From a virus: DNA of 37,707 bases. The stretch lies in IMG/VR virus record IMGVR_UViG_3300045988_025481, positions 1 to 37,707 of that record; one strand, written 5' to 3'. The position numbers and the translations under genes are program-made. Below are positions 988 to 23,094 of the stretch, piece after piece. The notes under the pieces are model-generated. The model was not told the DNA's origin. It saw only the letters and a list, made by a program, of their open reading frames with translations, and ran no database searches. Within the stretch, counting starts at the first letter, position 1. Each line of letters starts with the position of its first letter.

Positions 988-2730
988 TTATTTAAATAGT
1001 TTCGAAACCTTTTTTAATATTTTTAAAATCAAAGCGATAATACGATTGATTCCATTTACATTAATTTTATCATTTGAATCGCTTGTATCGTTTGAATCAT
1101 CTTTTTTAGGATTGCTCAACTCATCTAAATATTGTGATACTAATAATTTAAAATCATCCCAACCTTCATCAAGAATCTTGTGTGGGCAATATTTATAATT
1201 ACCACTTGTCATCTTGTAATCTTGGTGCTTTTTTAAGCAATCAATACTCAATCCATATTTATACAATAGCTCAGATGCAAGTCTTGCTCCATTCTCTCTA
1301 GCTTTTTTCCATTCATCTTGTGAATCGTTATCATTATCCTTGGCGATTTCGATTTGGATACCTGTTCTATTACCAAATCCATATGCTCCATCACCTGTTG
1401 CAAATGCATTACGATTCAATGGTAATGATTCGATGATGTCTTTATCATCCACCGAGAAATGCCAAGATTTATATTCCTTCGAATTGTGCAATGCATTATT
1501 TAAAGCTCTAGCAGTTCCATTTGGTGTTGCCGAGTTATGGATGATAATCGCTTGAGGTTTATTCATTAAATAAGGGCATTTGTAAGGATACAATCTCTTA
1601 TTAATTAAATCAACGATAATACCGTCATGTTCAAGAACTTCATCAGTTTTATCCTTTCCTTCGTAATCTCCTTCATTAACCGATGTAAATCCATTTGTAT
1701 TTACAATGGGTTTCGAAGGGGTTGTGGGTGTTTCGGTAGGTGTTGTCGTTGGCTTTGAGTCGTTCGGAGCAGTAAATGTTGCCCACATTTGCGTTCTATC
1801 CTCTGTTGCAGATACGGCAACGAATACTTTTTTATCTCCGTCTTTGCCTACTACATATCTGTGCCCATTTCCTACATACTTCCAATAATAGCGAATTGAA
1901 TCACCAGTGTTGTATGTTTTGCAAACATCACCTTTTGGCGAATCGTAACGTGCTCTCACACCGTCTACCGTGAATGTAGCGATACCATCTTCTTGTGTTA
2001 GGGTAATTGATTCGGTAGGTTTTTGTTCTTCAATAGAAGTAAATGTTGCCCACGGTTCTGTACCTTGCTCATTTCCATTCACTGCCACGAAATAACGATA
2101 GCTTGCACCATCTGCTTGATGTTCAACCCATGAAATATATCTGTGCCCATTTCCTACATATTTTTGCGTGTATTCTAGCTTTGCCCCTTTTTTCAATGTT
2201 TCTGCTACGATTCCATTTGGTGTATCTCTTCTTTTCTGAATGTCATACATTAATGTAGCATAAGCGTGTTCATCTATTAATTTAGATTCTATATAATCGC
2301 TATTTTGAGTTTGATTTACTAAACATTTAGGTCTAAAGCCTGTATCATATGTGGCACTGTATGGAAATTTACATAAATTAAATGCTCCTCCTGCACCACC
2401 TTGATTTTGTCCTAAGAACCAACCATATTTTCCATCAATATCAGAATCAAAAATTGCAATATGCGAATATGGTGTAACTCCTGGCACTACTTTGAACACG
2501 ACAATATCACCGGGTTGATATACAGATACTTCAACACTGTTTTCCAAGATTCCATTTGTCTTTCTGTATAGCCAAATGTCTTTAGCGTATTTACTGACTG
2601 TACAACTAATTCTTGGGTATCCTAGTTTCTCATACCAATACATTGCACCATCCCAACATTGAGGGCCGTAAGCTCCATCAATGTCAATTCTTTTGCCTAA
2701 TACATCGTTTTTAAAACTTTGATAATCTAT
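988..2730 (-). CDS. endolysin: CHAP peptidase, two SH3b-like repeats, Thr/Pro linker, Amidase_2 (N-acetylmuramoyl-L-alanine amidase), cationic amphipathic C-terminal helix
   Basis: ORF 988..2643 extended in frame to ATA 2730..2728 (GGAGG plus 9 nt). The CHAP catalytic motif GAYGPQCWD lies upstream of the first ATG, and the CHAP His is in YSHIAIF. Repeats carry KYVGNGHRY...WATFT twice. Amidase_2 motifs are IIIHNSAT...WHFSVDD...GIQIEIA...YCPHK. Confidence 0.85.
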   Translation of the reverse strand: MDYQSFKNDVLGKRIDIDGAYGPQCWDGAMYWYEKLGYPRISCTVSKYAKDIWLYRKTNGILENSVEVSVYQPGDIVVFKVVPGVTPYSHIAIFDSDIDGKYGWFLGQNQGGAGGAFNLCKFPYSATYDTGFRPKCLVNQTQNSDYIESKLIDEHAYATLMYDIQKRRDTPNGIVAETLKKGAKLEYTQKYVGNGHRYISWVEHQADGASYRYFVAVNGNEQGTEPWATFTSIEEQKPTESITLTQEDGIATFTVDGVRARYDSPKGDVCKTYNTGDSIRYYWKYVGNGHRYVVGKDGDKKVFVAVSATEDRTQMWATFTAPNDSKPTTTPTETPTTPSKPIVNTNGFTSVNEGDYEGKDKTDEVLEHDGIIVDLINKRLYPYKCPYLMNKPQAIIIHNSATPNGTARALNNALHNSKEYKSWHFSVDDKDIIESLPLNRNAFATGDGAYGFGNRTGIQIEIAKDNDNDSQDEWKKARENGARLASELLYKYGLSIDCLKKHQDYKMTSGNYKYCPHKILDEGWDDFKLLVSQYLDELSNPKKDDSNDTSDSNDKINVNGINRIIALILKILKKVSKLFK

Positions 2731-2777
2731 TAAAAAAAACCTCCTTTATATGCCAATTATAGCACATAAAAGAGGTT
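2730..2777 (-). terminator. 16-bp stem terminator hairpin plus T8; its 3' arm contains the endolysin SD and its loop contains TGCTATAAT
   Basis: Minus strand reads AACCTCTTTTATGTGC-TATAATTG-GCATATAAAGGAGGTT-TTTTTTTA. It starts 6 nt after the stop of gene 2783..3220. Confidence 0.6.
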
Positions 2778-2782
2778 TTTTA

Positions 2783-3220
2783 TCACTGATATACAGAGAA
2801 CATTTCTCTTAATTTATCTCTTACCATTTCTCTTTCTTCTTGAAAGTCGCTAGACGTTTTCATTTCTTCTAAGATTCCATACATAGCACTTAAAAAGGCT
2901 TCTAACTCACGAATTGAATTTTGTTTATCTAGTTCATTGTTGCCTTTTCGATATTCTTTTTTAGCTTCTATGTATTTCCTAAAATGAGAATTCATTAATG
3001 CGATATTATCATCAATTTCCGTTCCTTCAATATTTGTATCATTTGTTTTTAATGCGTTTATAGCAGTTCTTCCATCACTCATAGCTAGTATTGTATCAAT
3101 GTCTTTGATATTGTCTAAAGCTTGGCTCATGACTTTAAAATCTAAATCATTGTATCCTCTTTCTAATCCTCTCATCGCTTCCGTTAAGAGGTCTAGATTT
3201 CTTTTTCTAACCTCTTGCAT
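2783..3220 (-). CDS. hypothetical helical protein
   Basis: 145-aa ORF; TAGGTG lies 5 nt upstream of the ATG. Confidence 0.55.
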   Translation of the reverse strand: MQEVRKRNLDLLTEAMRGLERGYNDLDFKVMSQALDNIKDIDTILAMSDGRTAINALKTNDTNIEGTEIDDNIALMNSHFRKYIEAKKEYRKGNNELDKQNSIRELEAFLSAMYGILEEMKTSSDFQEEREMVRDKLREMFSVYQ

Positions 3221-3227
3221 GATACAC

Positions 3228-3647
3228 CTACGCTAACTTCTTAATGATGATATTTGCATTTTGAACAGATAAATCTAAGCCACTATTATTACCTAGCGTA
3301 ATTGTGTAAGACGCACCACAAGGTACTTGAATCAATGTAACTCCACTTACATTTCCATATGCGCTTGCAGTAGCTACATTATATAGAGATTCTGTTCCTC
3401 CTACTGCTTCTCCATTCTGTTCTAATTCTAAAGAAGCAACTCCTACCGTTGTGCTTGTGATGTCTGCCGTATATTCTACTTCATAGATTCCTTGTTTCGT
3501 TAATGTAAACAGCCCACTTCCTACATCATGAGCGAGCCAACCTTTACATGCACATTGGCATGATTTTGTTCTTACTCTGTCTGTTGGGAATAATACATTT
3601 TGTCCATTTGCTACTGTCTGAATTGCCGTTGCTATACTATTAATCAT
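3228..3647 (-). CDS. hypothetical beta-rich protein, possibly a BclA-C-terminal/C1q-like jelly roll (weak)
   Basis: 139-aa ORF with TAGGAGGAAAAGAAA upstream of the ATG. The alternating beta-strand pattern and CQCAC motif resemble that fold from memory only. Confidence 0.5.
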   Translation of the reverse strand: MINSIATAIQTVANGQNVLFPTDRVRTKSCQCACKGWLAHDVGSGLFTLTKQGIYEVEYTADITSTTVGVASLELEQNGEAVGGTESLYNVATASAYGNVSGVTLIQVPCGASYTITLGNNSGLDLSVQNANIIIKKLA

Positions 3648-3660
3648 TTTCTTTTCCTCC

Positions 3661-3694
3661 TATATAAAATAAATGGGTAGCCTTTCGACTACCC
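3661..3694 (-). terminator. terminator-like hairpin
   Basis: Minus strand reads GGGTAG-TCGAAAGG-CTACCC followed by ATTTATTTTAT. Confidence 0.4.
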
Positions 3695-3729
3695 TATAAT
3701 CCAAAGGCTATTGCCTAATCTCTTTCGAG

Positions 3730-4341
3730 CTAGATTTGGTTACATCCACAACCTGTCATATTATACGCATAATAAGGTGAGCAAGTAAGATATGCAGGTT
3801 TTGGCGTTGGTTGCAATGTATTGATAATATTTGCAGATTGTGCCTGTTGGCTCAATTGGAAGTTTGCAGTTAATAAATCTCTGTCTCTATCTGCTAATTT
3901 ATCACGCAATTCTTGCATTGTGTTAGCATTGATTAATGCTCTTGTTGCTTCGCCTTCTGAGTGAATTGCAGTGGTAATATCACACGTGTTTTTAAAACTT
4001 TGTGCGTTTACACCATCAATCGCTCTTTGTGTTGCACAACAACATTCTTGGTTTTGTTGACCTAGATTCTGCAAACCTAATTGTGTCGTGTATCGGCTTT
4101 CTAGAATGTCTCTTGAATTTTGGAAACCTTGGCTAGATACATTTTGATTTGTATTGAACAAATCACGCTTAATAAATTCTTGATTCATTAATTCGTCATT
4201 CTGTAGGTTGCCATTGTTACCCCAATTTCCACCAAATAGTAAAAATAACAGGATAATCCAAATCCAATATCCTCCACCAAATTCATTGTTGTTTCTGTCT
4301 GCTAAATCGTACATTGGTTGAATACCATTCATGCTTTCCAT
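3730..4341 (-). CDS. membrane-anchored Q/N- and Cys-rich protein, function unknown
   Basis: 203-aa ORF with a strong RBS (AAAGGAGGAAATATAA-ATG). One TM segment (YWIWIILLFLLFGG). Cys clusters ECCCA and CGCNQI. Confidence 0.6.
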   Translation of the reverse strand: MESMNGIQPMYDLADRNNNEFGGGYWIWIILLFLLFGGNWGNNGNLQNDELMNQEFIKRDLFNTNQNVSSQGFQNSRDILESRYTTQLGLQNLGQQNQECCCATQRAIDGVNAQSFKNTCDITTAIHSEGEATRALINANTMQELRDKLADRDRDLLTANFQLSQQAQSANIINTLQPTPKPAYLTCSPYYAYNMTGCGCNQI

Positions 4342-4365
4342 TTATATTTCCTCCTTTCAACGCAA

Positions 4366-4575
4366 TTAGCGTTTTAGCCCATATTGACTAGCCACATTTT
4401 CAAATTGTTGTTTTTGTTGTGGCGTTAAATTCCCCATCATATTATTCAATAATACTTTGGGATTCTGTCCACTTTGCATTAATTGTTGTACTTGATTAAA
4501 TGCTTGTGGATTTCTTTGTTGTAACATACCCAACAACATTTGTTGAGGGTTCATCATATTCATTAAAGGATTCAC
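4366..4575 (-). CDS. Q/M/N-rich small protein
   Basis: 69-aa ORF with a GTG start after AAGGAGC plus 7 nt. GTGA overlaps the upstream stop. Confidence 0.5.
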   Translation of the reverse strand: MNPLMNMMNPQQMLLGMLQQRNPQAFNQVQQLMQSGQNPKVLLNNMMGNLTPQQKQQFENVASQYGLKR

Positions 4576-5006
4576 GCTTTAAGCTCCTTCCTAGGCGTTT
4601 CTTTATCTACCTTTGTATTTATATTACTTCCGTTTGTTAGACCTAATATCATAGCTTCTAGCTTGTCTAAGCGTTGTTCTATGTTGTCTTTCTTCGGCTC
4701 TGTTTCTTCTTGGAATCTGTATTTCTTGAAACTGCCGTCTAAAGACTTCATGTAGAATACTGAATCATTTCTATCTAGCATAATACTAGGCAGACCGTTC
4801 ACCATCATATTCCTTGCTTCTTGTTCATTATTAACCCACTTACCATTAAAATCATTCAATGCCATGTTAGGTGTGATTTGGTTATTGATGTTAATAGGTG
4901 GAATATTCGCCATCTGTTGAATCGTCTGTAACTGTGATTCAATCATTTGCTTTTGATTCATTAAATTGTTAATTCTGTCATTAATTGGATTATACATTTC
5001 GCTCAC
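4572..5006 (-). CDS. hypothetical protein; first gene of the cassette
   Basis: 144-aa ORF. Start is GTG 5006 or ATG 4997, with AGAGGTG/GGAG upstream. Confidence 0.55.
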   Translation of the reverse strand: MSEMYNPINDRINNLMNQKQMIESQLQTIQQMANIPPININNQITPNMALNDFNGKWVNNEQEARNMMVNGLPSIMLDRNDSVFYMKSLDGSFKKYRFQEETEPKKDNIEQRLDKLEAMILGLTNGSNINTKVDKETPRKELKA

Positions 5007-5073
5007 CTCTTTACACTCCTAATTATATTCATAGGCAGTTTCAGTTTGTTTTCACATTAATGTCAAGTAAATG

Positions 5074-5101
5074 CCAAAAAAAAGAGGTTTTTCAACCTCT
5101 T
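5074..5101 (-). terminator. rho-independent terminator (bidirectional shape)
   Basis: Minus strand reads AAGAGGTT-GAAA-AACCTCTT followed by T8. It overlaps the stop of gene 5100..5384. Confidence 0.7.
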
Positions 5102-5384
5102 AATTCTTGTCTAGATACGTTTCTTTTTCACTGCTTTTTCTTGGTGGTAAAACTGCGCTATACTTTTCTACTTCATCATACTTGTTCTTTATTCTTTTGA
5201 TGATTCTATTCACACTAGAAACACTCATATTTAATCTGTCGGCTTGTTCTCTGACTGTCCATCCGTATATTCTTGTTCTTAGAATCATTTCTTCATCTTT
5301 AGTTAATAAAGCTAGATTAATAAATTCTTCAAGAATAATCTTATTCCAAGGTACTTGATTCGTCATTGTCTTGTTCTTCGTCAA
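5100..5384 (-). CDS. sigma-70 region-4-like HTH regulator
   Basis: 94-aa ORF. EEMILRTRIYGWTVREQADRLNMSVSSVNRIIKRIKNKY resembles a region-4 HTH. It overlaps the holin 3' end by 44 nt. Confidence 0.5.
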   Translation of the reverse strand: MTKNKTMTNQVPWNKIILEEFINLALLTKDEEMILRTRIYGWTVREQADRLNMSVSSVNRIIKRIKNKYDEVEKYSAVLPPRKSSEKETYLDKN

Positions 5385-5856
5385 TAAGTTTATCTGCTAC
5401 TTCTAATCCTTTAGTTAATACTTTTGGTACATTGTAACCACATTGTAATAAATTCTCCATAACGCTACGAGATTCATTAATACATAGCGAAGCTAACACA
5501 AACCAACCTAGCAATGTAGACACATGGAAATCAATCCCTAGAATTTCTCCTACTTCTACTAAAAATGCACTGAATGTGAACGCAACCACAATCATAATCC
5601 AATAGCCTAGCTTTTTTAAAACACCGGTCCAACCTTTGTTGCTATTGATTTTATGAGCAATAGCCGACTTCATGCACCCTGTAATATAATCCACTACATT
5701 CATAAATAAGAAGAACGCAAATAAATACCAATGCTCGCCTAATACGTATGTTAATACGGCTACGGCAACACCACACATTGCATTAATCTTATCTAGAAAA
5801 AACATACTTCTTGCTATTTGCTTAAATCCTCCATTTTTATTTTCTATTAAATTCAC
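5341..5856 (-). CDS. holin (TcdE/phage_holin_4-type, toxin secretion/phage lysis family)
   Basis: Multi-TM ORF with DYITG...KK...INESRSVMEN motifs typical of that family. GTG 5856 sits inside the SD; ATA 5847 lies 8 nt after GGAG and is the better-placed start. Confidence 0.75.
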   Translation of the reverse strand: MNLIENKNGGFKQIARSMFFLDKINAMCGVAVAVLTYVLGEHWYLFAFFLFMNVVDYITGCMKSAIAHKINSNKGWTGVLKKLGYWIMIVVAFTFSAFLVEVGEILGIDFHVSTLLGWFVLASLCINESRSVMENLLQCGYNVPKVLTKGLEVADKLIDEEQDNDESSTLE

Positions 5857-5859
5857 TCC

Positions 5860-6874: not shown

Positions 6875-7747
6875 CTATATACCTAAATACCTTTCGTTGT
6901 AGTAAACAGTGCAAGCTAGGTTCGTATCTCCATTATCTGCCGTATATCCTATGATATTCTCACCTAAATTAATAGTCATATCATTGAATGATGAAGTTCT
7001 ATCAACTTTGCCAATACAATTCACGCCATTCTTCTTTATTGAAATAGGTTCAGAAACTAAATCGATTTCTAATACATCACCATTGTGTAACGTATCTAAT
7101 ACACGAATATATTTATCTTTATTGAATAGTTTCGGATTTGTCACATCTCCAAATGCTTCAATGACGGCCCTGCAATATGTTTCTGTATCACCTTGATTAT
7201 CAATATAAATTTCTCTAGCGAATGTGAATGTTCCAAAGTTTACGCCTGTTTCCGGTATTTCGAAATTAAATGCTAAACCACCGCCGATTTCTGCAATATT
7301 CTTTGCAAAATCATCAAATGAAAGTAATAAAGGTTGCGTGCATAGAATCGTAAAATTAAGCTCTAAATCTTTGTAGATGTTAACAGTAGGCAAGCTATAC
7401 GCATATAAACGACCTCTGCAATACTTCTTTTCTCCCATGTACTCAACTATCACATCAAATACATGAGAATATTGGAAGAAGCGCCGTAGCTTCTCCCTTT
7501 CTTCTCTTTTTTCTTCTAGTGAACCTTTAAAGATAGCTTTCACGCTTCTTTCTTTCGTTGGAATACGTGAACCGATTAATCTAGCACCATTTCCAAATGC
7601 GTTGTCTTGCGTAGTGTATGAAGGTGCTACATAATCAAATCCATCTAAGCCATCATTTGAAGGAATCCTCCATCTTTTTTGGTTGTCAATTTCAAATTCT
7701 GTGCCATCATCCCTACGGACAATAACTCTTACTTTATTGATGTCTAT
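6875..7747 (-). CDS. distal tail protein (Dit)
   Basis: ORF 6875..7543 extends 68 codons upstream with no ATG/GTG/TTG, to ATA 7747..7745 (GGAGG plus 9 nt). The ATA overlaps the TMP stop as ATAG. Position directly after the TMP supports the call. Confidence 0.75.
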   Translation of the reverse strand: MDINKVRVIVRRDDGTEFEIDNQKRWRIPSNDGLDGFDYVAPSYTTQDNAFGNGARLIGSRIPTKERSVKAIFKGSLEEKREEREKLRRFFQYSHVFDVIVEYMGEKKYCRGRLYAYSLPTVNIYKDLELNFTILCTQPLLLSFDDFAKNIAEIGGGLAFNFEIPETGVNFGTFTFAREIYIDNQGDTETYCRAVIEAFGDVTNPKLFNKDKYIRVLDTLHNGDVLEIDLVSEPISIKKNGVNCIGKVDRTSSFNDMTINLGENIIGYTADNGDTNLACTVYYNERYLGI

Positions 7748-10323
7748 TGAATTACACCTCCATATCCATATCTTGCTTGCATACGTAACATTCTAGCGAT
7801 TTCATCCGGACTTTGAGCTTTATTGTAGAAGTTGATAGTCTGTCCATTGTTATTCGTTGTAACACTAGGCATAATTTGGACCATATCTTTTGCTACGGCA
7901 CGAATCCACGCTTTATTCTTTTCTAAAGGAACGACTGCTTCTGCTCCATTACCTTCTAACAATCCAATTTGACCGCGTTTCAATACACCACCACGCTCTA
8001 GTTTTGGAATCTTTCCAATGCTAACTCCGGGAATCTTATTGATGATACTGATTGCACCATTAATTCCACCGATAACACCATTTACCATTCCTTTTACACT
8101 TCCAACTAATGATTGCACTGCTCCTTCAATTCCATTGAATACACCATCTACAAAGCCTTTTAAACCGCTCCATGCATTCTGTATTCCATGTAGAACATTT
8201 GAAATCTTATTTCCTACTTTATCCATCACGATTTTTACTTTTGACCACACATCGTCAAATACATTTGAAATAGTATCTTTTACACCTGCGAAGCTAGAAT
8301 CAATTATATCAATCACATTTTGTACAATATTTCCAATATTATCGAATACACCTTTGATAACATTCCATATGCTTTCAAATATGCTTGAAATTGACTGGAA
8401 TAAACCACTTGCAAATTGAATGATTGCAGATACTACCTCACTTATCTTGCCCCAAATATTCGTTGCAACAGTTACGATTAAAGACCAAATATTAGATATG
8501 ATAGATGCAATGATTTGAACAATCGGCATGATGATAGACAATATTGTAGAAATTGCACTTCCAACATATGAAATCACCATACTAATGAACGAAATGATTC
8601 CACTTACAACACTTCCAACTATCGAAAGAATAGATGTGATTACAGGAATTAATCCAACTATGTTTGAAATCACCATCTTTATAATCGCTAGGATAGGTGG
8701 ACCAACCACGCTCAGAATCTTTTGTGCTTGGTTTACGATATTTTGAATAGCTTCAATAATCTTAGCTAATATATCTTTTGCAATAGGTTCAAGTGCAATC
8801 TTCATTTTGTCGATTGCGTCTTTTACCTTATCAAAAGCAGGAGCTAACACTTCAGAAACTTGGCTTGTGATTTTTGTGATTCCACTTGTATCAATCTTAC
8901 TTAATACATTTGAAATTACATCACCAACTTTAGCAAATCCTTGTTGAATACCTTGTATCGCTACTGTAATTAGTCCAATAATACCGGAAAGAATAGGAGT
9001 AATCGCTTCGCCTATTGGAGTAAATGAGTTTAAGAATGTACGCCCTAAGCCACTTAAAGCGTTCTTTAAACCACCATTTGCAATATCTTTAACCTTTTCC
9101 ATTGCTCCTTGTACATCTTTATATTTATTCCCTACTGTCGTTAAGGACTGAATGAATCCGGCGTTGAAATCTTCTCCCATTGTACCGAAAGCCGTTGCAG
9201 ATTTATTCAATTTTTCTTGTTCATTTGTAGTCTTTGAAATATCTTCTACAATCGCATTCACAACATCTTTTTGAGTTGCTCTTCCTTCTTGCCATGCCTT
9301 AAATACATCTTGTGTTTTGGTATCAAAACTATCTAAAGCTCCTTCAATAGTTCCATCAACTAACCTTGTGGTAACTTCGTTAATTGCGTCATTTACTTTG
9401 TCAAGGTTATAAGCTCCACCGTCTAAACCATTCTGCATTAATTGGAAGTATTCTTCTGCCGAATATCCTGCTTGCTTGAATTTACCGGAGTATTCTGAAA
9501 TGTTGTCGCCTAACTCATCTGATTTGTTTAAACCATTCTGAGCACCTGTAGCCATAAGGTCGAAAGCTTCTTGAGAAGTAATTCCGAACTGCTTCATTAA
9601 TTGTTGAGCACCTCTAAGAGTTTCGTTTTCGTCCATACCGAATGTGTCTCTTAATGTCAATAAATCCTCAGTTACATTCTTTAAATCAACATCACTTATG
9701 CCTTGCATTTGTTGCTTGACTCTGCCCATCATATCGGCAACATCTGAAACATCTTCACCGAAATTATTAGACCAAACATCACGAGCAATGCTTTTAAATT
9801 TGCTCATTTCATTGCTTGAAGCACCTGTTTGAGCTTGGAATTTAGCCATAGCGTCATCTAGCTCAACGGCTTGGTTAACACCTGTCTTAATTGCTAATGC
9901 CATCCCACCGATAGCTCCTGCTACGGCAGTAACGCCTACAACACCTCCAACGCCTAAACCTGTTAAGGTTTCAGTGATTGCAGAAGCTTCCGGACTAATA
10001 TTCTGAATCTTTCCTAATAGTCCATCAAATCCACCTTGAATTGATTCTAATGCACTGTTTCCTACTTGCTTAAATACATCAAATTTAGAACCTGTTTCTT
10101 GTGTTTCTGTTTGTGTATTTCTTTGCTCTTCGTTTAAATCTTTAAGTTTATCTTTAATCTTTGGCGGTGCTTTTGAACCATCAGAACCTAGCTTATCAAT
10201 CGCTTTTGAAGTATCTTTGATAGCATTTGTGGCTTCACTTGATACAACCTTTACAGATTTAATTCCATTCTCTAGACCACTTGTATCAATCTTTGTATCA
10301 AACTTTAATGTTCCGTCTGATAT
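7744..10323 (-). CDS. tape measure protein
   Basis: ORF 7744..9903 extends 140 codons upstream in frame with no canonical start. The first codon after an in-frame TGA is ATA 10323..10321, with AAAGGAGGTG upstream. Long helical/hydrophobic repeats are typical of TMPs. Confidence 0.85.
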   Translation of the reverse strand: MSDGTLKFDTKIDTSGLENGIKSVKVVSSEATNAIKDTSKAIDKLGSDGSKAPPKIKDKLKDLNEEQRNTQTETQETGSKFDVFKQVGNSALESIQGGFDGLLGKIQNISPEASAITETLTGLGVGGVVGVTAVAGAIGGMALAIKTGVNQAVELDDAMAKFQAQTGASSNEMSKFKSIARDVWSNNFGEDVSDVADMMGRVKQQMQGISDVDLKNVTEDLLTLRDTFGMDENETLRGAQQLMKQFGITSQEAFDLMATGAQNGLNKSDELGDNISEYSGKFKQAGYSAEEYFQLMQNGLDGGAYNLDKVNDAINEVTTRLVDGTIEGALDSFDTKTQDVFKAWQEGRATQKDVVNAIVEDISKTTNEQEKLNKSATAFGTMGEDFNAGFIQSLTTVGNKYKDVQGAMEKVKDIANGGLKNALSGLGRTFLNSFTPIGEAITPILSGIIGLITVAIQGIQQGFAKVGDVISNVLSKIDTSGITKITSQVSEVLAPAFDKVKDAIDKMKIALEPIAKDILAKIIEAIQNIVNQAQKILSVVGPPILAIIKMVISNIVGLIPVITSILSIVGSVVSGIISFISMVISYVGSAISTILSIIMPIVQIIASIISNIWSLIVTVATNIWGKISEVVSAIIQFASGLFQSISSIFESIWNVIKGVFDNIGNIVQNVIDIIDSSFAGVKDTISNVFDDVWSKVKIVMDKVGNKISNVLHGIQNAWSGLKGFVDGVFNGIEGAVQSLVGSVKGMVNGVIGGINGAISIINKIPGVSIGKIPKLERGGVLKRGQIGLLEGNGAEAVVPLEKNKAWIRAVAKDMVQIMPSVTTNNNGQTINFYNKAQSPDEIARMLRMQARYGYGGVIQ

Positions 10324-10343
10324 TCAATTTGCCACCTCCTTTT

Positions 10344-11284: not shown

Positions 11285-11791
11285 TTATACTTCTGATGTA
11301 CCTTCTGTAAATGTTACTGTTCCATCTGCTACCTTTGCAGTACCGACACGAATATCGCTTGCAAAGTTAATATTGAAGTTGATTTTTGAATCGACACCGC
11401 TTAATGTGTCAAAAATCAATTTAGCGTCAACTTCCCACGCTTTATAGCCTTTAGTTTTGTCTCCGTCAAACATAAATACAAGTAAAGCTTTTGTATTTAC
11501 TTCTTCATTGTTTGGTACGGATTTCATCATTTGTTCGTAAATGTATTCAAAGTCATCTTCACCTTTAATCATAGTCAAATCCTGTGAGATTTGAGGTGAA
11601 TAACTCTTTAATGATTCTGTTGGGTTCTTATCTGCGATAAAGTCATATGTTTCAGTTTCGCTATTAAATGCAATATCTAAAGTTGTAGACTTTTTAATTC
11701 GCTTGTATCCTGTTCCCATTTGTAAGAACAATCCAATCATATACTTTTTGACTGTCTGTCCTGTATTTACTTCAGTTCCTTGAGTTGCTAT
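11285..11791 (-). CDS. major tail protein
   Basis: ORF 11285..11740 extends 17 codons to ATA 11791..11789 (AAGGAGC plus 8 nt; TAATA overlap with the upstream stop). ATG 11740 has no SD. Position supports the call. Confidence 0.65.
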   Translation of the reverse strand: MATQGTEVNTGQTVKKYMIGLFLQMGTGYKRIKKSTTLDIAFNSETETYDFIADKNPTESLKSYSPQISQDLTMIKGEDDFEYIYEQMMKSVPNNEEVNTKALLVFMFDGDKTKGYKAWEVDAKLIFDTLSGVDSKINFNINFASDIRVGTAKVADGTVTFTEGTSEV

Positions 11792-12210
11792 TAATTAAGC
11801 TCCTTTCTGTATTTAATTTGAATAGTCAATGCATATACTGCTTGATTATCCTCATTTGTGTATAGATATAAACCACTTGAAACGGAAACATCCTCACAAT
11901 GTCTGTTTCCGTCTAGTTGTGGTAATTCTCCGCTTAAATTCTTTTCGTCAATCCAATTTTCTAATTCTTCTAGAAAAACATTGTTATCTTGTCTTTCTGG
12001 TTCAATTTGTGTATTCCTACGTGCTAGAAACGTGTAGTATTCAGTACGCATTTGAGAACCATCAATGTATGTATTTACAATTGCGTTAGGTTCTTTATAC
12101 AATGCATAAGAGATAGCTTGTTGCGCTAAAACATCCGTTTCAATACGTTCATCTATCTGTATATTTCCGTAGCCATAAAGCCACTGAATCAACGCTTTTG
12201 ATACTGTCAT
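11791..12210 (-). CDS. tail completion/terminator-type head-tail protein
   Basis: 139-aa ORF in the head-tail joining block. ATGA overlap with TAGGAGACGG upstream. Confidence 0.5.
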   Translation of the reverse strand: MTVSKALIQWLYGYGNIQIDERIETDVLAQQAISYALYKEPNAIVNTYIDGSQMRTEYYTFLARRNTQIEPERQDNNVFLEELENWIDEKNLSGELPQLDGNRHCEDVSVSSGLYLYTNEDNQAVYALTIQIKYRKELN

Positions 12211-12581
12211 TTTCCGTCTCCTATCATTTGTTGTGTCATTTGTTGTGCTTTCTTCAAGATTGCTTCTGCTCCGCCATTTCGCATAGCTTTGTCAAACCAA
12301 TGGTCTGTTTTACCACCAACGAAATGAGCACCCTCTTTGTTGTAATACCAACGTCTAGCATAAGGAGCACTTGGTCCACCTTGCTTTACTAATCCACTAC
12401 CGATTTGAGTATTTCTTGTAGCCGAGTTAATCAATGCTCCTGTGTCTCTCGGCGTATATGGGGCCATAAGCCTAATGACTTCAGAATCAATCATTTGTTG
12501 AACTTGTCCACGTTCTTCAAGTCCTCTTGATTGCTTAATTTGGGGAATTGATTCAACATCAAGTTTAACTTTGATACCTAT
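12207..12581 (-). CDS. HK97 gp10-like head-tail protein
   Basis: Frame of ORF 12207..12653. ATA 12581..12579 follows GGGAGG by 10 nt and overlaps the upstream stop as ATAG. ATG 12653 would overlap the upstream gene by 75 nt and has no SD. Confidence 0.55.
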   Translation of the reverse strand: MGIKVKLDVESIPQIKQSRGLEERGQVQQMIDSEVIRLMAPYTPRDTGALINSATRNTQIGSGLVKQGGPSAPYARRWYYNKEGAHFVGGKTDHWFDKAMRNGGAEAILKKAQQMTQQMIGDGK

Positions 12582-12997
12582 TGACCCACAACCTCCCAAT
12601 GTTTCAACATATCGACATTCGTACAATCTGTTACGCTTTGAACGGTTGTCCATTCGTATTTCTTTTTAGCTTCATTTATTGCTTTGATGTTAGATAAATC
12701 TTCTTTAACTTCTCCAAAGAATACGAAATCTGTCTTATCTGTATTTAATGTGAAGTGTTTTGATTTCTCATCATTTGAAAGTTTCGCATATGCGTAAGGT
12801 TCAACATATCCCTCACGATACAGAATGGTAATATTTGTGGATGTGGCTATGCTCAGAATATTACCGTTTGCAGTTCTAACAGTTGATTGTCTCCACATAC
12901 ATTTATCAAGAATAGAAGCTTGAAACCTATCTTCTCTTGTCAATGTGTCATAGTAGTGATTAACAAGTGTAATTGAATCCTCAAAGAATCCTATCAT
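12578..12997 (-). CDS. head-tail connector / minor capsid-type protein
   Basis: ORF 12578..13042. The likely start is ATG 12997, which overlaps the upstream stop as ATGA (MIGFFEDS...). Confidence 0.5.
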   Translation of the reverse strand: MIGFFEDSITLVNHYYDTLTREDRFQASILDKCMWRQSTVRTANGNILSIATSTNITILYREGYVEPYAYAKLSNDEKSKHFTLNTDKTDFVFFGEVKEDLSNIKAINEAKKKYEWTTVQSVTDCTNVDMLKHWEVVGQ

Positions 12998-13463: not shown

Positions 13464-14332
13464 TACTTAGCACTAGCAGATAAATAAATACCTGCTACCT
13501 TATTTGCGTATACATCAACGATTCCATACTTACGATATTTCAAAACATCTGAATCTGATTCAATGTTATTGCTTGCGGGAATCACATTTGAAACAGTGTG
13601 CTTATCCCATTTCATAACGGCAGGTTTATGAACAATTAAGAAGTTGATTACGTGTCCATCTTCTGCCTTTTCGTATCCACCTTCTAACTCTGTGTCTTTT
13701 CCGCTCAACAATTTGATTTTTGTATAGAAACGACTAGCAGGTACAGGAACAACTTTTGCGAATCCTTGTAAAGCTTCACGAGATTTGTAAGTGTCCAACG
13801 CCTTAACGCCATTTAATAATGTAGGTGTAGCATACAAGATACGTTGTTCGCTAGGAACTTCATCTTCATCCATTTTAGTAGTTGCCGTTAATAATGCGCT
13901 CAAGAACTCTTCTGAAGTTGTATAATCTTCGGCAACTGTTGTGATTCCTGTTGTGCCTGCAATCTTAGCGAATGTGTAAGCGTCTGCTTCCGGCGCAACC
14001 TTTGTACGCATTAATTCTGCTCCTGCCATACCGAATGCAATGTTCATTGATTCTGCGTTATCTTGTGTATCAACTGAGATTTTAGTACCTCGGTCATAGT
14101 CGAATGTAGCAGTTTTCCATTCTAACTTAACTGAGTTACCTGTATAACCACTGTTTCTATCGTAGTTTCCTAAACCTTTAACAGAAATTTGTGGATAGAT
14201 GATTTCTTTTGCGTTTGCTCCTGCTCGTACCATTGTAGCGTCTGCATTTAAATCACCTGTAACTGAAGCTAACTTATATACCTCATCCAAATTTGAGACA
14301 TACGTTTTAGCTAATGCAATTTCATTTGGTAT
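13463..14332 (-). CDS. major capsid protein
   Basis: ORF 13463..14290 extends 14 codons to ATA 14332..14330 (AAGGAGG plus 9 nt). The extension restores a typical ...Y.S.LDEVYK N-terminus. The gene follows the scaffold gene. Confidence 0.8.
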   Translation of the reverse strand: MPNEIALAKTYVSNLDEVYKLASVTGDLNADATMVRAGANAKEIIYPQISVKGLGNYDRNSGYTGNSVKLEWKTATFDYDRGTKISVDTQDNAESMNIAFGMAGAELMRTKVAPEADAYTFAKIAGTTGITTVAEDYTTSEEFLSALLTATTKMDEDEVPSEQRILYATPTLLNGVKALDTYKSREALQGFAKVVPVPASRFYTKIKLLSGKDTELEGGYEKAEDGHVINFLIVHKPAVMKWDKHTVSNVIPASNNIESDSDVLKYRKYGIVDVYANKVAGIYLSASAK

Positions 14333-14346
14333 TAATTAAATCCTCC

Positions 14347-17885: not shown

Positions 17886-18449
17886 CTAACCCCACATAGT
17901 ATTTAAATCATTTGTAGTAATCGCAGTTAATTCTGACTTCTTAACATACGCCGATAAATCAATGTCTGTATTACCAATCTTTTCGTATGTCTTTGTCTCT
18001 GAAAGCCAAATATACTCATCATAGATATCTTGTGTTCCATGTGAATGTGCTACCAAATAAATTACACCATTTGAACCTGTAGCAGGTAAGCTCGTTACCT
18101 TTTCATATCTAATAGATGCAATGTTTCCTACTGCCGAATTAATCAACGATTGTACTTGTGATTGCGTTTGGAATCCATTGTCATTTGTTAATTGTGATAC
18201 CTTTGTAGGCACTGTAACATCCACGGCTTTTGAGCTTGGCGTTAATTTCGTACCATTTACCTTTACAGATTCAATCACATTCACTTGAGCACCACTTGCG
18301 ATACCACTTAATTTTTGCTTTTCTTCGCTTGTGTAGTCATTTGTTGATAAGCCTTTACCACTTACGGCATCAACTTTCCCACCTAACGCCGTTTTAATCT
18401 TACTGATTAAGAGTGTCAATCCACTCTTATCTAAATATTCAATAGCTAT
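17886..18449 (-). CDS. tail-fibre-like protein
   Basis: ORF 17886..18419 extends 10 codons to ATA 18449..18447 (TAGGAGG plus 8 nt). GKGLSTNDYTSEEKQKL and SQLTNDNGFQT are typical fibre repeats. Confidence 0.6.
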   Translation of the reverse strand: MAIEYLDKSGLTLLISKIKTALGGKVDAVSGKGLSTNDYTSEEKQKLSGIASGAQVNVIESVKVNGTKLTPSSKAVDVTVPTKVSQLTNDNGFQTQSQVQSLINSAVGNIASIRYEKVTSLPATGSNGVIYLVAHSHGTQDIYDEYIWLSETKTYEKIGNTDIDLSAYVKKSELTAITTNDLNTMWG

Positions 18450-18461
18450 TCTTTTTTCCTC

Positions 18462-18761
18462 CTATAGACTATTCCATAATTCATCTAGTTCGGTTGTTGA
18501 TACACATGTTACAGAACCTTCTGCCATAGCTCCAACATCTTCCGGAGTATATACCGGTCTTGTTTCTGCTTTTGCCCACGTTGGAACTGTTGGGTCTATT
18601 TCTTCAACCTCTCCAATGATTTCATTACCATTTAATTTAGGTTTGTTCTTTAGCTTGTTGTAATCACTTGTACCTTCAACAAACTTCTCATCTGAGATTT
18701 CAATTTGAAGCTTGTCTGATTCATCTTGTATATTCATTTGAATATCTTGCATTAGAATCAT
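18462..18761 (-). CDS. fibre-associated protein (DYNKLKNKPKLNG motif)
   Basis: 99-aa ORF with AAGGAAGTG plus 5 nt upstream of the ATG. Confidence 0.5.
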   Translation of the reverse strand: MILMQDIQMNIQDESDKLQIEISDEKFVEGTSDYNKLKNKPKLNGNEIIGEVEEIDPTVPTWAKAETRPVYTPEDVGAMAEGSVTCVSTTELDELWNSL

Positions 18762-19057
18762 GTAATCACTTCCTTATTCAATACTCTATATACCTTTGTT
18801 GTCTTGACAGGAGAAGCAACAGCAACTCCTCCTTTTGTAATCATTCTTAATTGAATATTACAAGTACCCTCTTTGAAATTGAGCGTTTCTTCTTGACTTA
18901 ACAACACTGAAATAACATTTCCTTCAATGTCTAAATCACTTGATTCTTTTTTTAAGATATATCCGTTCTGTTCAAATACCACATAGATATTCTGCATTTC
19001 ATTTAAATCAATATCGTTTATTGTGATTTGAATTGTTGGCGTAGTTCCTTGTCTCAT
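18758..19057 (-). CDS. small structural-module protein
   Basis: ORF 18758..19078. The best start is ATG 19057 (AAGGTG plus 5 nt; ATGA overlap): MRQGTTPTIQITI... Confidence 0.5.
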   Translation of the reverse strand: MRQGTTPTIQITINDIDLNEMQNIYVVFEQNGYILKKESSDLDIEGNVISVLLSQEETLNFKEGTCNIQLRMITKGGVAVASPVKTTKVYRVLNKEVIT

Positions 19058-19863
19058 GATTTCACCTTGTAAGTCCAATCTTTGCCTACTTCACCCGACT
19101 CAACTTCATACGCCCAATCGGCTAGCATTTCATGACCGTTCTCATCTACCAGTGTTCCATCTTCTGTTAATAGAATCGTAGTGAAATGGTTATTCATAAG
19201 CATTTGTTCTACATTTGCAATTCGGTTCATTAACTTACCTGCGGTATTTGAATCCAACGTATCTTTTACGCTTGCGAACCATTCATTGAATTCATTTTCA
19301 TTTGCACTCATTTCAGATTGATTCTGCTCTTTTACTTCTTTGAATAATTCGGTCATTTGTGTAAATAAATCTAATGTTTCAACACTCTTTATGGCATTTG
19401 TAACTACTCCACAACGTGTTGAATCTAACCTTGTATCAGTGATGTTTGAGCCTTTGATTTCACTTGCGTTTCCTTCCACTGTTACCGTAGCTAATACCAT
19501 ATCATAAATAGAACCGCTTCTTGTGATTCCATCGTTGGTGTCGCTTGCTAATAAGGTAATGTTTCTATATGTGTCATTGTCATTCAATCTAAGAATAATA
19601 TTGTAGCTTTTAGTAGCGTTATTCTTTTCTAATGTGATGGTTTCGTCGTCTTTCTGCCAATAGAATGCTCCGTTAATATTTGCTCGTCCTGCCTTAACTG
19701 TAAGTGTTAAGCCTTGAGCCTTTTCAACTCTCAAATGGTCTGAACTAGAATCATCTATGAATACGCCATTTGTAAAGTAGCTTGAGAATAGCTTTCTGAA
19801 AGCGTCATATAAGACTAATCTATCACCATTTCGTGAGACAAATGGAAAATATGTAGTTGCTAT
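19054..19863 (-). CDS. fibre/baseplate-like structural protein
   Basis: ORF 19054..19734 extends 43 codons with no canonical start, to ATA 19863..19861 (GAGGGGGA plus 9 nt). The ATA overlaps the portal stop as ATAG. The FPFVSRNGDR...ITDTRLDSTRCGVV pattern resembles phage fibre proteins. Confidence 0.6.
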   Translation of the reverse strand: MATTYFPFVSRNGDRLVLYDAFRKLFSSYFTNGVFIDDSSSDHLRVEKAQGLTLTVKAGRANINGAFYWQKDDETITLEKNNATKSYNIILRLNDNDTYRNITLLASDTNDGITRSGSIYDMVLATVTVEGNASEIKGSNITDTRLDSTRCGVVTNAIKSVETLDLFTQMTELFKEVKEQNQSEMSANENEFNEWFASVKDTLDSNTAGKLMNRIANVEQMLMNNHFTTILLTEDGTLVDENGHEMLADWAYEVESGEVGKDWTYKVKS

Positions 19864-21263
19864 TCTTCGTCATCCCCCTCTCCATCATCTTGAATTTCTT
19901 CATTCAACAATTCCGTTGCTTCTTCTTCAGTGAAGCCGTATTGCTTCATGAAATACATAATCTTTAATCTTGGAATATCAAATGTTAATGCGTCATTTCT
20001 TAACGCTTGTGCCGTGCTTTGCTTATCCTCGATATATGTATCATCATAATCAATAGCAATATCTAATGAATTGATATTAAGCTTTCTGCCTTGTGTCAAT
20101 TCGTAGAAGTATGCAATAGCTTGAATAATGTCTTGAATATATGCAGTAGATTCTTTACGTTGTGAGTTTACTTCCTTCATAGCGTCTTGATTCTCACCAA
20201 TATATTCTGTAGCCGTCACAATTCTTCCACTTTCAAAGGTGTATTTCTTTGTACCAAATCCAAACATCATTGATAAGATACTTAATGCAGTTTCTAGTGA
20301 TTGCACAACTTCCGCCGTTCTTACTGTTGGATTGTATTCTTGCCATAAAGCTTTTTCTTCCGGAAGCTTGTCTCTACCTAACTGAACAAATATCTTTTTC
20401 ATTTGTGGATTCATCTTAATATTTCCATCCTTGTCTTTCTGCATTAATGCTTCATTCACAAGAACAATTTTATCAGACTTCAACAAATCACGATTCCACA
20501 TTGTCATTGTTAAATCAATTGTTTTCAAAGGAGCAATTGCACTCCAAATCTTCGGCAAGCCGTACCCTTGCATTTGTAAGTTGTTGACCTTTGCATTTCT
20601 CATAATTGCAAACGGCTTAACCACATCTAATTGAACTATCTGAGCACGCTCTTTTATTTCTTCGCCTGTATCTTTAAAGTAATGTGTTTCTGCAATATAT
20701 CTTTCGTCTTGTCCTTTTAAGAACATGACCATCACATATACTTTTTTCAACTTCTCATAATTTACTCCAACGAAAGCTACTTCCACAATTTCATCATTGA
20801 TAACAGTTAATGGAAGGATATTCATTGAATCACAATAGTTGATTCTTATTTCCCCTCCACTGAATGTACCATCTTCGTAAATCTCGGCATTTGATACCGT
20901 TACATAAGCTCCTACTGTACCGTTTGCAGACATTTGCTCAACTTGTTTCCTATACATTACATCAAACCTATTCTTCGTTAGAATGTCTGAAATAATATCA
21001 TTTGTTGTACTGTCCTCTGTTGCGTTTATATCTAGGATTTCAATAAGGTTTGCGTCATCCTCGCATAAACGCTTTGCAAAGTCTGTTTTATCTAGCGTGT
21101 ATTCCTCGTTGTTCAACGTGTATGCCGTATGAAATTCTGTTTCGGTATTCGTGTACCACTTATTACACAATTCAATAATCTCAATTGCGTTTGTGTCTAC
21201 ATAATACCCTCTGTCGTTTAGGTAATTCTGAAACCACGGTCTACGTGTGTTAGATGTTTCTAT
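19860..21263 (-). CDS. portal protein (SPP1 Gp6-like)
   Basis: ORF 19860..21170 extends 31 codons to ATA 21263..21261 (AAGGAGG plus 6 nt), two codons after an in-frame TAA. Its size and position after TerL support the call. Confidence 0.8.
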   Translation of the reverse strand: METSNTRRPWFQNYLNDRGYYVDTNAIEIIELCNKWYTNTETEFHTAYTLNNEEYTLDKTDFAKRLCEDDANLIEILDINATEDSTTNDIISDILTKNRFDVMYRKQVEQMSANGTVGAYVTVSNAEIYEDGTFSGGEIRINYCDSMNILPLTVINDEIVEVAFVGVNYEKLKKVYVMVMFLKGQDERYIAETHYFKDTGEEIKERAQIVQLDVVKPFAIMRNAKVNNLQMQGYGLPKIWSAIAPLKTIDLTMTMWNRDLLKSDKIVLVNEALMQKDKDGNIKMNPQMKKIFVQLGRDKLPEEKALWQEYNPTVRTAEVVQSLETALSILSMMFGFGTKKYTFESGRIVTATEYIGENQDAMKEVNSQRKESTAYIQDIIQAIAYFYELTQGRKLNINSLDIAIDYDDTYIEDKQSTAQALRNDALTFDIPRLKIMYFMKQYGFTEEEATELLNEEIQDDGEGDDEE

Positions 21264-21266
21264 TTC

Positions 21267-22604
21267 TTACCTCCTTAAATCTATATATCCACTATGGGTT
21301 ATAAATGTGTAGCAGAACGAATCCCAATCATCATTGATATTGTTTACGTTCTCATCTTTCGGAATGTCTTTCTTTTCATCCCATACCAATTCGCTCAATG
21401 CATTTATTAAGTTCTTACAATGTTCTTCTATCTTCAATCTACCTGTAACAAGTAAGCTATCAACTGTTATAGGACGGTCCGTTAGCTCATTCTTCTTAAC
21501 CGGTGCAATTATACTACCGTCCAATCCTTCGGCGTAGAAATAAGCTCTAAGCGTGTTTATGAGTGTGTTAGAAGCACTGTCCGGAAATATCCATTCTACA
21601 TATCCGTAACATTCAATACAACGCTTATAGAATCTTACAAATGCTTTGCAGAACTTTGTTGCGTATATGGAATTAGATTTAGCCATGTCTCCTTCATCAA
21701 GTGCCCACATATAATCCCAATCATTTGTAAACCCTGTTAAGTGCCATGAATATTTCGAGCCATTGTCTCCAAAATCAACGCCAATAATTAAATGACTGAA
21801 CCTTTTCCCTTCTTCCTTCATCTTTTCTTTTAGACTCTGATATTTGAATAGGTAAGGCTTGCAGTTATTGGCAAAATAAGGAAAGACTAGACCTTCGGCA
21901 ACCATTCTTTCCCCTAAAATATCTCGCTTGTACCATACTGAATTCTTGTCATATTTGTTTTGGATTTCTTCGATTCTTTCTTGGCTCATTGTAGCATTGT
22001 CAAAGATGTTGAAGTGCTCATATCTGTACCAATCTAACCCCATAAATTTATCTATGTAATTCTTATAGATGTCTGCGTTTGGGTTTGATGGGTTTAAATC
22101 CCATAATGTAAATGGATGTACACTTGCAATCTGTCTTGCCATCGCTACCTTGATAAAGCTTGTTCTAGAATCATCACAATCGTAATGCTCATTTATTTCG
22201 GTCGCTATCCATCCACCATATGAGTTACCTAATATGCTCTTATATGAATCGGACTTTCCACCGCCTGTAAATATAACTATCTTTTCGCCTGTCTTTGTTT
22301 GGACAAATAGTGCTTCGTTCGATTTGTATTTACCCCAACGACACCGCCCACGAAAGATATGTTCTAAGCCGAAACCATTGCAATCGCCTATGTTTAATTT
22401 CGCATTTGGTAAGCTTGACCCACTCGCTAAATGTATTTTATCTTCGCATGTTTCTAAATACATTGAAAAGATTATGCAGTGGTCAATCGTTTTGCCACTT
22501 CGTACCGCTCCTTCTGCTACACTTTGTTTGTAATTTAGGGCGGTCTTAATATAATTCTTATGTTTATCTGAAAATTTCCCCCAAGGAATCGTTCTAGTCA
22601 TCAT
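21267..22604 (-). CDS. terL: terminase large subunit
   Basis: 445-aa ORF with Walker A EGAVRSGKT, PBSX/Terminase_3-like. The ATG overlaps the TerS stop. Confidence 0.9.
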   Translation of the reverse strand: MMTRTIPWGKFSDKHKNYIKTALNYKQSVAEGAVRSGKTIDHCIIFSMYLETCEDKIHLASGSSLPNAKLNIGDCNGFGLEHIFRGRCRWGKYKSNEALFVQTKTGEKIVIFTGGGKSDSYKSILGNSYGGWIATEINEHYDCDDSRTSFIKVAMARQIASVHPFTLWDLNPSNPNADIYKNYIDKFMGLDWYRYEHFNIFDNATMSQERIEEIQNKYDKNSVWYKRDILGERMVAEGLVFPYFANNCKPYLFKYQSLKEKMKEEGKRFSHLIIGVDFGDNGSKYSWHLTGFTNDWDYMWALDEGDMAKSNSIYATKFCKAFVRFYKRCIECYGYVEWIFPDSASNTLINTLRAYFYAEGLDGSIIAPVKKNELTDRPITVDSLLVTGRLKIEEHCKNLINALSELVWDEKKDIPKDENVNNINDDWDSFCYTFITHSGYIDLRR

Positions 22605-22942
22605 TTTAATAAATCTGCCAAAGGTGTTAAGTCCTCAATCTCATGTGTCATTGTCTGCTCAACCTTTTCGCTCTGTCCAAGCATTTGTTTACCTAACCAA
22701 ATAAGCATGGTCGTATTCCCTTTTGACGCTTTGTCAAATTGCATACGTCTTAAACTTCTTTTTGAGTGGCTTATACCTTTTTTATATGTCTGACAAAACT
22801 TTCTATTTCTTAATAATGTTCTTACCGAACATCCTAGGAAATCTGCAATTTCTTCTTGAGTACATCCAATAGAAGCAAGCTTTTCAACTGCTTCATAATC
22901 AATCTTTATTCTTGGGCGTCCTCCTGCGTGTTTCTCTGCTAT
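22601..22942 (-). CDS. terS: terminase small subunit (HTH)
   Basis: Not in the ORF track. The frame is open from TAG 22957 to TGA 22601 and encodes (M)AEKHAGGRPRIKIDYEAVEKLASIGCTQEEIADFLGCSVRTL... The first ATG is 66 codons in. ATA 22942..22940 lies 6 nt after a G7 run. Confidence 0.7.
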   Translation of the reverse strand: MAEKHAGGRPRIKIDYEAVEKLASIGCTQEEIADFLGCSVRTLLRNRKFCQTYKKGISHSKRSLRRMQFDKASKGNTTMLIWLGKQMLGQSEKVEQTMTHEIEDLTPLADLLK

Positions 22943-23094
22943 TTTAATCCCCCCCTATAACAATCATATTGATTCAATTGCTTTTTAAGCCTTTGTAATC
23001 TTTTTCTTAAATCTCTTTTTCTATATTCTGATGTCGTGTTTTCTAATTCTTCTTCAACGCTTTTCATTTGGCGTAAATGTTCTTCTCTAGACAT
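22939..23094 (-). CDS. 51-aa coiled-coil ORF ending at the G7 tract
   Basis: Hand-translated: MSREEHLRQMKSVEEELENTTSEYRKRDLRKRLQRLKKQLNQYDCYRGGLK. It overlaps the radical SAM stop. It could fuse to TerS by a -1 shift on the G7 run. Confidence 0.35.
   Translation of the reverse strand: MSREEHLRQMKSVEEELENTTSEYRKRDLRKRLQRLKKQLNQYDCYRGGLK

Follow-up and report, generated by a model that had tools for sequence, protein, structure and literature searches.

The 37,707-nucleotide virus record IMGVR_UViG_3300045988_025481, analysed here at its full length (hereafter the window), is a gut tailed-phage genome of about 34% GC in which nearly all genes lie on the minus strand. About 15 of its roughly 60 genes, around a quarter, begin with ATA, among them those for the small terminase subunit (TerS), portal, major capsid protein (MCP), major tail protein, tape measure protein (TMP), distal tail protein (Dit), holin and endolysin, and the nucleotide before the start codon (position -1) is A at every one of these sites. 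The genome also carries an initiator-derived tRNA, with the anticodon UAU and with U at position 37 (U37), the nucleotide 3' of the anticodon. We consider a fourth base pair between A at -1, A(-1), and U37 to be the best explanation of why A(-1) never varies, and, judging from sequence, such a pair is probably formed.

ATA is the true start codon of these genes. Many minus-strand open reading frames (ORFs) run for 30-140 codons from the upstream stop before the first ATG, GTG or TTG, and in these long-lead frames a strong Shine-Dalgarno sequence (SD) at normal spacing precedes an ATA, while canonical starts are absent for up to 140 codons. At each of the 11 sites listed in an initial annotation of the window, made from the sequence alone, calculated pairing of the SD with the 3' end of 16S rRNA is strong (-8 to -15 kcal/mol), and the distance from SD core to start is about 7-13 nt by a crude measure. 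Orthologs lead to the same conclusion, because they carry ATG at the identical codon: the MCP start reads AGGAGG-N8-A-ATA-CCA-AAT in 40 close relatives and ATG-CCN-AAY (M-P-N...) at exactly the same codon in 45 distant ones (54-66% identity). Within the clade of relatives that carry the tRNA, the holin gene, the major tail gene and one fibre gene each have ATG alleles and ATA alleles at the same codon. Pfam domains also begin upstream of the first canonical start, as the RusA and Minor_capsid_2 profiles do; in TerS the helix-turn-helix (HTH) domain (amino acids 17-47) lies wholly ahead of the first ATG, itself 66 codons downstream of the ATA. We found no ATA starts outside the tRNA-carrying clade among 45 non-clade relatives and the loci L069 and L088/L089 (loci are given by L numbers). 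The latter had been candidates for a second ATA-using lineage and were rejected, L069 since it uses canonical starts and L088/L089 since the ATA picked there behind an SD is an internal Ile codon. GTG and TTG together account for 18 of 420 unique SD-led start contexts in the ATA-using clade vs 127 of 583 outside it, and in the clade ATA seems to have taken the place of these usual alternatives to ATG.

All 11 sites in the initial annotation had been reported as A-ATA, and all are as described; with four more of the same build that we found in the early region, A(-1) occurs at 15 of 15 ATA starts in the window, compared with 22 of 44 canonical starts (one-sided Fisher p=2.3e-4). The same annotation suggested internal in-frame ATA codons as a background, reasoning that a frequency of preceding A close to 1 would empty the pattern of meaning. 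The frequency is far from 1: A precedes 59 of 151 such codons (39%), and at a background of 0.39 the binomial probability is 3e-5 for 11/11 and 7e-7 for 15/15. To extend the count, starts in the window and 64 clade loci were called de novo by SD energy, ranked per ORF, with -1 left unconstrained (simply counting SD motifs ahead of each trinucleotide had told us nothing). This yielded 117 distinct ATA contexts with A(-1) and nine with another base; the nine are false calls, being internal to ParB, the large terminase subunit (TerL), a fibre protein or a glycosyltransferase, or reading 'ATA ATG' with the ATG as the start. The genuine sites come from 18 or more unambiguous gene families, of which several are not represented in the window, and counted per family A(-1) is found in 18 of 18 ATA families vs 43 of 68 ATG families (p=8.6e-4). 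As a control, the same pipeline run on the 45 non-clade relatives, which use ATG, GTG and TTG, returned only spurious ATA picks, with -1 distributed as A15/C21/G21/T17; because these show no A(-1) bias, the bias in the clade is not a product of start calling.

Substitution patterns point to selection at this one position. Across 16 ATA-start families there are no changes at -1 vs 5-13 at each of positions -2 to -10 (Poisson probability of zero about 8e-4), whereas ATG-start families show 23 changes at -1, like the neighbouring positions (18-28). A(-1) is therefore under purifying selection specifically at ATA starts. The MCP and minor-capsid orthologs of the outgroup are mostly T-ATG (for the 45 MCP ATG orthologs, -1 = T26/C9/A10) where the clade has A-ATA, so the -1 base must actually have changed; in TerS, -1 is C or T in ATG alleles and always A in ATA alleles, and the portal start is A-ATA in all 45 orthologous loci. 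The initial annotation had also drawn attention to G at +4, after nine of its 11 sites. That count is right, and G(+4) is enriched in the window (11 of 15 ATA starts vs 10 of 44 canonical; p=7e-4), but per gene family across the relatives the difference is not significant (9/18 vs 22/68, p=0.13), and without family-level support we reject it as a component of the signal. Position -2 shows a pattern of its own, with A depleted at ATA starts in the window (3/15 vs 30/44) and G enriched at the family level (8/18 vs 7/68).

The other half of the proposed pair lies in the tRNA. ARAGORN found no tRNA in the window, and the gene was recovered as an Rfam match (48 bits, 26196..26124), with its anticodon UAU at 26164-26162 and U37 at 26161. 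The anticodon loop, C32-U33-U34-A35-U36-U37-A38, was placed by a 10-sequence structural alignment with 12 compensated pairs, which together with Rfam bears out the initial annotation's reading of an unusual U37; the canonical CAU/A37 loop is absent and CUUAUUA stands in its place. That annotation also held that the tRNA is not merely an elongator, and we agree. Several initiator hallmarks are present: an A1xA72 mismatch (non-canonical in the Rfam alignment), shared by every UAU copy and by the nearest CAU relatives; the formylation determinants G2:C71, C3:G70 and A73 (AGCAGGA...UCCUGCA-A-CCA); and A11:U24 (D stem GAGC/GCUC), for which columns 11:23 of alignment A1 read A:U in 10 of 10 sequences. 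Elongator tRNAs have Y11:R24. The traits of an elongator tRNA-Ile(UAU), namely a paired 1:72, Y11:R24 and a purine at 37 carrying N6-threonylcarbamoyladenosine (t6A), are all missing, their places being taken by A1xA72, A11:U24 and U37. Judged by these features, the tRNA is of initiator type and not a plain elongator. It departs from canonical initiators in its bulged T-stem nucleotide, its T loop (UGCAAUU) and its anticodon stem, which lacks the three consecutive G:C pairs (29-31:39-41); in CUAGU/GCUAG only G30:C40 is a G:C pair, and the variant stems UCGGU/GCCGA and UUGGU/GCCAA have one or two G:C pairs plus U31.G39.

IMG/VR and human-gut metagenomes hold over 60 contigs with a UAU-type copy, and all copies have the loop CUUAUUA and so U37. 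Among them are three fully compensated anticodon stems, those just given, indicating that the stem has been replaced twice, and one version has canonical D and T loops. The tRNA is present in all 36 loci that hold its neighbouring gene. A37 is found in every CAU relative, whether it shares the D arm or the acceptor stem of the phage tRNA. These relatives, from phages, a Kaiserbacteria metagenome-assembled genome (MAG) and metagenomes, comprise 10 diverse sequences and a CAU tRNA that shares the acceptor stem and occurs, in two near-identical versions, on four viral contigs. The phages with CAU/A37 homologs (L030, L032-35, L141) have few SD-led genes. In GenBank phages the only matches to the tRNA are two records of the tRNA-Met of one mycobacteriophage, Phabba (78%), and the sole genome match in the tRNA scans is the Kaiserbacteria initiator tRNA. 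Canonical initiator genes sampled on viral contigs have A37 in 120 of 121 cases. The single U37, in a CAU initiator with three G:C pairs, is on L265 (IMGVR_UViG_3300003882_000001), where the 6-kb locus shows no clear SD-led starts.

How might the two features work together? We propose that the loop of an initiator-derived tRNA changed from CUCAUAA to CUUAUUA (C34U and A37U). In the P site of the 30S subunit, U34-A35-U36 would pair with A(+3)-U(+2)-A(+1) of the start codon and U37 with A(-1), which would give a contiguous helix of four pairs, 5'-AAUA-3' with 3'-UUAU-5'. A(-1) is Watson-Crick complementary to U37 at 15/15 window sites and at 117/117 genuine contexts in relatives. Such a fourth pair would offset two weaknesses, the all-A:U triplet and the lost stacking of a purine at 37. 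In-solution duplex energies from ViennaRNA (kcal/mol) are +2.7 for AUA/UAU, +1.8 for AAUA/UAUU and +1.4 for AUG/CAU, from which the fourth pair would regain most of the deficit of the all-A:U triplet. A host initiator, with CAU and, in a typical host, A37, would fit A-ATA sites poorly, so that the ATA-start genes would depend on the phage tRNA, and A(-1) would add insulation by denying a host A37 initiator its preferred U(-1). Charging and formylation of the phage tRNA are presumed in this scheme. Extended pairing between -1 and 37, to which the initial annotation appealed, does have precedent: in E. coli, A37U and A37G versions of tRNAfMet shift the favoured -1 base to the complementary one, as seen with about 44,000 reporter variants and in the proteome, and the authors speak of 'quadruplet pairing' (Hollerer & Jeschek, Nucleic Acids Research 2023, PMC10018350). 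Earlier chloroplast work (Esposito et al. 2003), as cited in that paper, pointed the same way.

That A(-1) is invariant and under selection does not in itself reveal its partner, and it could be needed for AUA initiation for a reason other than pairing with U37. It might stack on the weak first A:U pair, make a contact between the ribosome or an initiation factor and the E-site nucleotide, or serve only to deny the host tRNAfMet (A37) its U(-1), while U37 serves another purpose, such as escape from t6A37 modification, synthetase identity or evasion of an anticodon-loop nuclease. Two observations sit well with this: G(-1), which could wobble with U37, never occurs at ATA starts, and T is the commonest -1 base at ATG starts of non-clade relatives (35%, vs 21-26% T at -2 to -6), as expected if host A37 initiators prefer U(-1). 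We nonetheless regard it as unlikely, since two rare features, exact complements that arose together, would then need unrelated causes, a 5' dangling A contributes little stacking energy, and in the E. coli compensatory experiments the -1 preference tracks the identity of nucleotide 37 (PMC10018350). Should the tRNA instead be only an elongator tRNA-Ile(UAU), with the host initiator reading ATA starts weakly and A(-1) unrelated to the tRNA, its anticodon would have the 151 internal ATA (Ile) codons of the phage to read, and the missing G:C pairs of the anticodon stem would be no surprise. The 1x72 mismatch, A11:U24, G2:C71, C3:G70, A73 and the homology to CAU initiator-type tRNAs speak against this, as does the restriction of ATA starts to the clade with this tRNA, and a host A37 initiator should favour U(-1), not A. 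Native E. coli tRNAfMet initiates at AUA at only 0.1-1% of the AUG level (PMC11744186), which is implausible for the MCP, portal and other capsid and tail genes, and we consider the elongator account highly improbable. A(-1) might also be no more than an inheritance from base composition and ancestry: ATG starts that had A(-1) by chance, their spacers being rich in A, would have become ATA through a G-to-A change; A(-1) is found at 60-63% of clade ATG starts, and ATG and ATA alleles coexist with identical A(-1) contexts. At a 63% baseline, however, 18 of 18 independent families has p ~2e-4, and the absence of changes at -1 in ATA families and the T-ATG outgroups, from which -1 had to change, add to this, so that a history without selection is extremely improbable and already largely refuted by the family statistics and the change counts. 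That the ATA codons are not starts at all, with true starts elsewhere (through frameshifting, introns or truncated proteins from downstream ATGs), agrees with where standard ORF callers put the starts and is barely credible given the SD placement, the orthologous ATGs at the same codon and the Pfam domains upstream of the first ATG.

Pairing of A(-1) with U37, which we favour, has to be weighed against several points. A(-1) is common to begin with in this AT-rich clade (a baseline of 50-63%), so that p values of about 1e-3 to 1e-4 are good and not overwhelming. Position 37 is fixed among UAU tRNAs, and the C34U/A37U switch together with A-ATA amounts to one evolutionary event; exact and degenerate scans of IMG/VR, metagenomes and genomes, and a route through the neighbouring gene, found no position-37 variation in UAU-type tRNAs. 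The co-variation of start context and tRNA put forward in the initial annotation thus holds as complementarity, with A(-1) invariant and under selection, and is a single fixed state rather than repeated co-variation, as in the survey of phage/tRNA pairs it had proposed UAU copies go with U37 throughout and their CAU relatives with A37, separated by a single switch; overall we find its interpretation partly supported. The -1:37 effect in E. coli is modest (about 23% for U(-1)) and by itself does not predict absolute invariance (PMC10018350). Wobble-capable G(-1) is never used, U37 might carry a modification, and the mRNA is kinked between the E and P sites. Lacking the three G:C pairs of canonical initiators in its anticodon stem, the tRNA may behave differently from tRNAfMet in the P site, and the A37 of the host initiator is assumed from typical hosts.

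If pairing does occur, one might go further and see here a natural, virus-encoded orthogonal initiation channel, in which changes at the anticodon and at position 37 would have redirected an initiator tRNA from AUG to AUA, read together with -1 as the four-base start signal AAUA. A host initiator (CAU, and A37 in a typical host) would match neither -1 nor the third base of the codon, and translation of roughly one gene in four, those for all major virion and lysis proteins among them, would depend on the phage tRNA. We find the arguments for and against this fuller picture evenly balanced. The ATA-started proteins may in that case have a non-methionine N-terminus.

Several known systems share parts of this arrangement. 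Mitochondrial tRNA-Met (CAU with a modified C34) reads both AUG and AUA starts; mitochondria likewise use AUA, but with one base-modified CAU tRNA and without U37, a -1 rule or an SD. Initiator tRNAs of mycoplasmas and rhizobia have fewer than three G:C pairs in the anticodon stem while keeping CAU and A37, and the CAU-type relatives of the phage tRNA, with AU/GC/GC anticodon stems, resemble them and also keep CAU and A37. In crAss-like and Lak phages, phage suppressor tRNAs accompany stop-codon recoding of late genes; there too a codon is given a new meaning by a phage tRNA, which many late or structural genes need, but stop codons are recoded in elongation, whereas here it would be a start codon. 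The original work on engineered anticodon-mutant initiators reportedly came from the RajBhandary lab. Such mutants start at non-AUG codons, the CUA amber initiator being one example (reviewed in PMC11744186). Like the phage tRNA they combine an initiator body and acceptor-stem formylation determinants with a changed anticodon and a cognate non-AUG start, but they are laboratory-made and keep A37 and the three G:C pairs, whereas the phage tRNA is natural, with U37 and an altered anticodon stem. Closest is the quadruplet pairing of A37 with U(-1) in E. coli, where, as proposed for the phage, the -1 nucleotide of the mRNA faces the nucleotide 3' of the anticodon, and where the engineered A37U initiator prefers A(-1), the exact phage pair (PMC10018350). 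In E. coli the natural pair is U:A, modest in effect and not obligatory, and A37U is man-made; the phage would have a natural, reversed A:U pair, fixed at every site and, unlike in E. coli, tied to a non-AUG codon and a virus-encoded tRNA.

In the searchable literature we came across no account of a natural phage tRNA that initiates at AUA. What has been reported of the -1:37 pair is weak, engineered or statistical in nature, and, so far as that literature shows, a natural, obligatory and reversed pair on a viral AUA-reading initiator is undescribed. Evolution appears to have run the compensatory experiment itself, flipping both partners (U:A to A:U) and making the pair obligatory at an all-A:U start, and the system would thus offer a clean natural test of what a fourth base pair contributes to start-site selection. 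The pairing of this tRNA with AAUA is a candidate orthogonal initiation system for synthetic biology. There is also a practical consequence for annotation, as about 25% of the genes in this phage group are cut short or overlooked by standard gene callers.

Table 1. ATA start sites and the tRNA gene in the window. Positions are in plus-strand numbering; the site is the first base of the ATA, and the interval covers the four nucleotides of A-ATA (for the tRNA, the gene).
Feature	ATA	Interval	Strand	Start context	Remarks
Endolysin	2730	2728..2731	-	TTA-ATA	QCWD motif upstream of first ATG
Holin	5847	5845..5848	-	TTA-ATA	
Dit	7747	7745..7748	-	TCA-ATA	
TMP	10323	10321..10324	-	TGA-ATA	First canonical start 140 codons downstream
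Major tail protein	11791	11789..11792	-	TTA-ATA	A-ATG in one relative (L050)
Minor_capsid_2 ('gp10-like')	12581	12579..12582	-	TCA-ATA	Pfam profile position 1 aligns to residue 3; ATA overlaps TAG stop of upstream ORF (ATAG)
MCP	14332	14330..14333	-	TTA-ATA	
187-aa fibre-region gene	18449	18447..18450	-	AGA-ATA	A-ATG at same codon in some clade members
269-aa structural gene (first 'fibre' gene)	19863	19861..19864	-	AGA-ATA	
Portal	21263	21261..21264	-	GAA-ATA	AGGAGG TAAGA A ATA GAA
TerS	22942	22940..22943	-	AAA-ATA	GGGGGG ATTAA A ATA GCA
64-aa coiled-coil protein	26740	26738..26741	-		Slightly ambiguous: ATG two codons downstream
243-aa HTH_36 protein (early region)	31315	31313..31316	-		SD + A-ATA
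RusA-like gene (early region)	31694	31692..31695	-		Pfam RusA profile position 19 aligns to residue 22
41-aa ORF	34617	34615..34618	-		Possible start, least certain site; SD -13.6 kcal/mol
Initiator-derived tRNA		26121..26196	-		CCA encoded

Initiator-type tRNAs are found well beyond the UAU clade. In one family the D loop is the 7-nt AGUAGUA, which lacks GG, and the T loop is UGCAA, with G where psi55 would be; some members have a bulged T-stem base. This family includes L116 (the Kaiserbacteria MAG, from a bacterium of the candidate phyla radiation), L030, L032-35 and L120-L148, and comes from viral contigs of about 190 kb and metagenomes. In the non-clade loci L076, L085, L093, L102-L109 and L112, an initiator-like tRNA-Met(CAU) with a 1x72 mismatch and three G:C pairs lies beside structural genes, and several have unusual loops, with C33 (L076/L085), G37 (L093) or C38 (L102-L109). 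To carry an initiator tRNA seems characteristic of the entire phage group. In the one phage with G37 (L093), -1 is T5/C5/G3/A2 over only 15 starts. At 987-1058 of L089, ARAGORN reports a tRNA-Ile(tat) with G1:C72, a 4-bp anticodon stem and the loop AAUAUAU (A33, A37), which is odd, elongator-like and not initiator-like, and L089 is without ATA starts. Two other non-clade loci, L099 (~8189) and L110 (~5667), have T-ATA at the minor-capsid-2 codon where orthologs have ATG, with no canonical start within 14 codons, and the host initiator may read these ATAs as starts, U(-1) being the base that an A37 initiator would favour.

The phage itself has no close relative in GenBank phage searches; the nearest phages, from human faeces and Clostridioides difficile, share only 45-50% TerL identity. 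Pfam matches in the window comprise a TerS-like HTH protein, tape measure protein, Dit, holin, an amidase endolysin, a Minor_capsid_2 protein and RusA, and a cluster of ParB, a TET-associated glycosyltransferase (TAGT) and a radical-SAM protein. The genes for this last trio (ParB_N, TAGT and radical-SAM) lie downstream of the tRNA on the minus strand at 23087-25731, separated from it by a small DUF6275 gene (25750-25995), and look like a DNA-hypermodification cassette. In the holin gene a second SD and A-ATA start lies 10 codons downstream of the first (ATA 5817; 5815-5818, minus strand), and both are conserved in relatives; the double start may represent the dual-start arrangement of a holin and antiholin. 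The ATG of TerL (22604) has no recognisable SD and overlaps the 3' end of TerS (22601-22634), which suggests that TerL translation is coupled to that of the ATA-started TerS.

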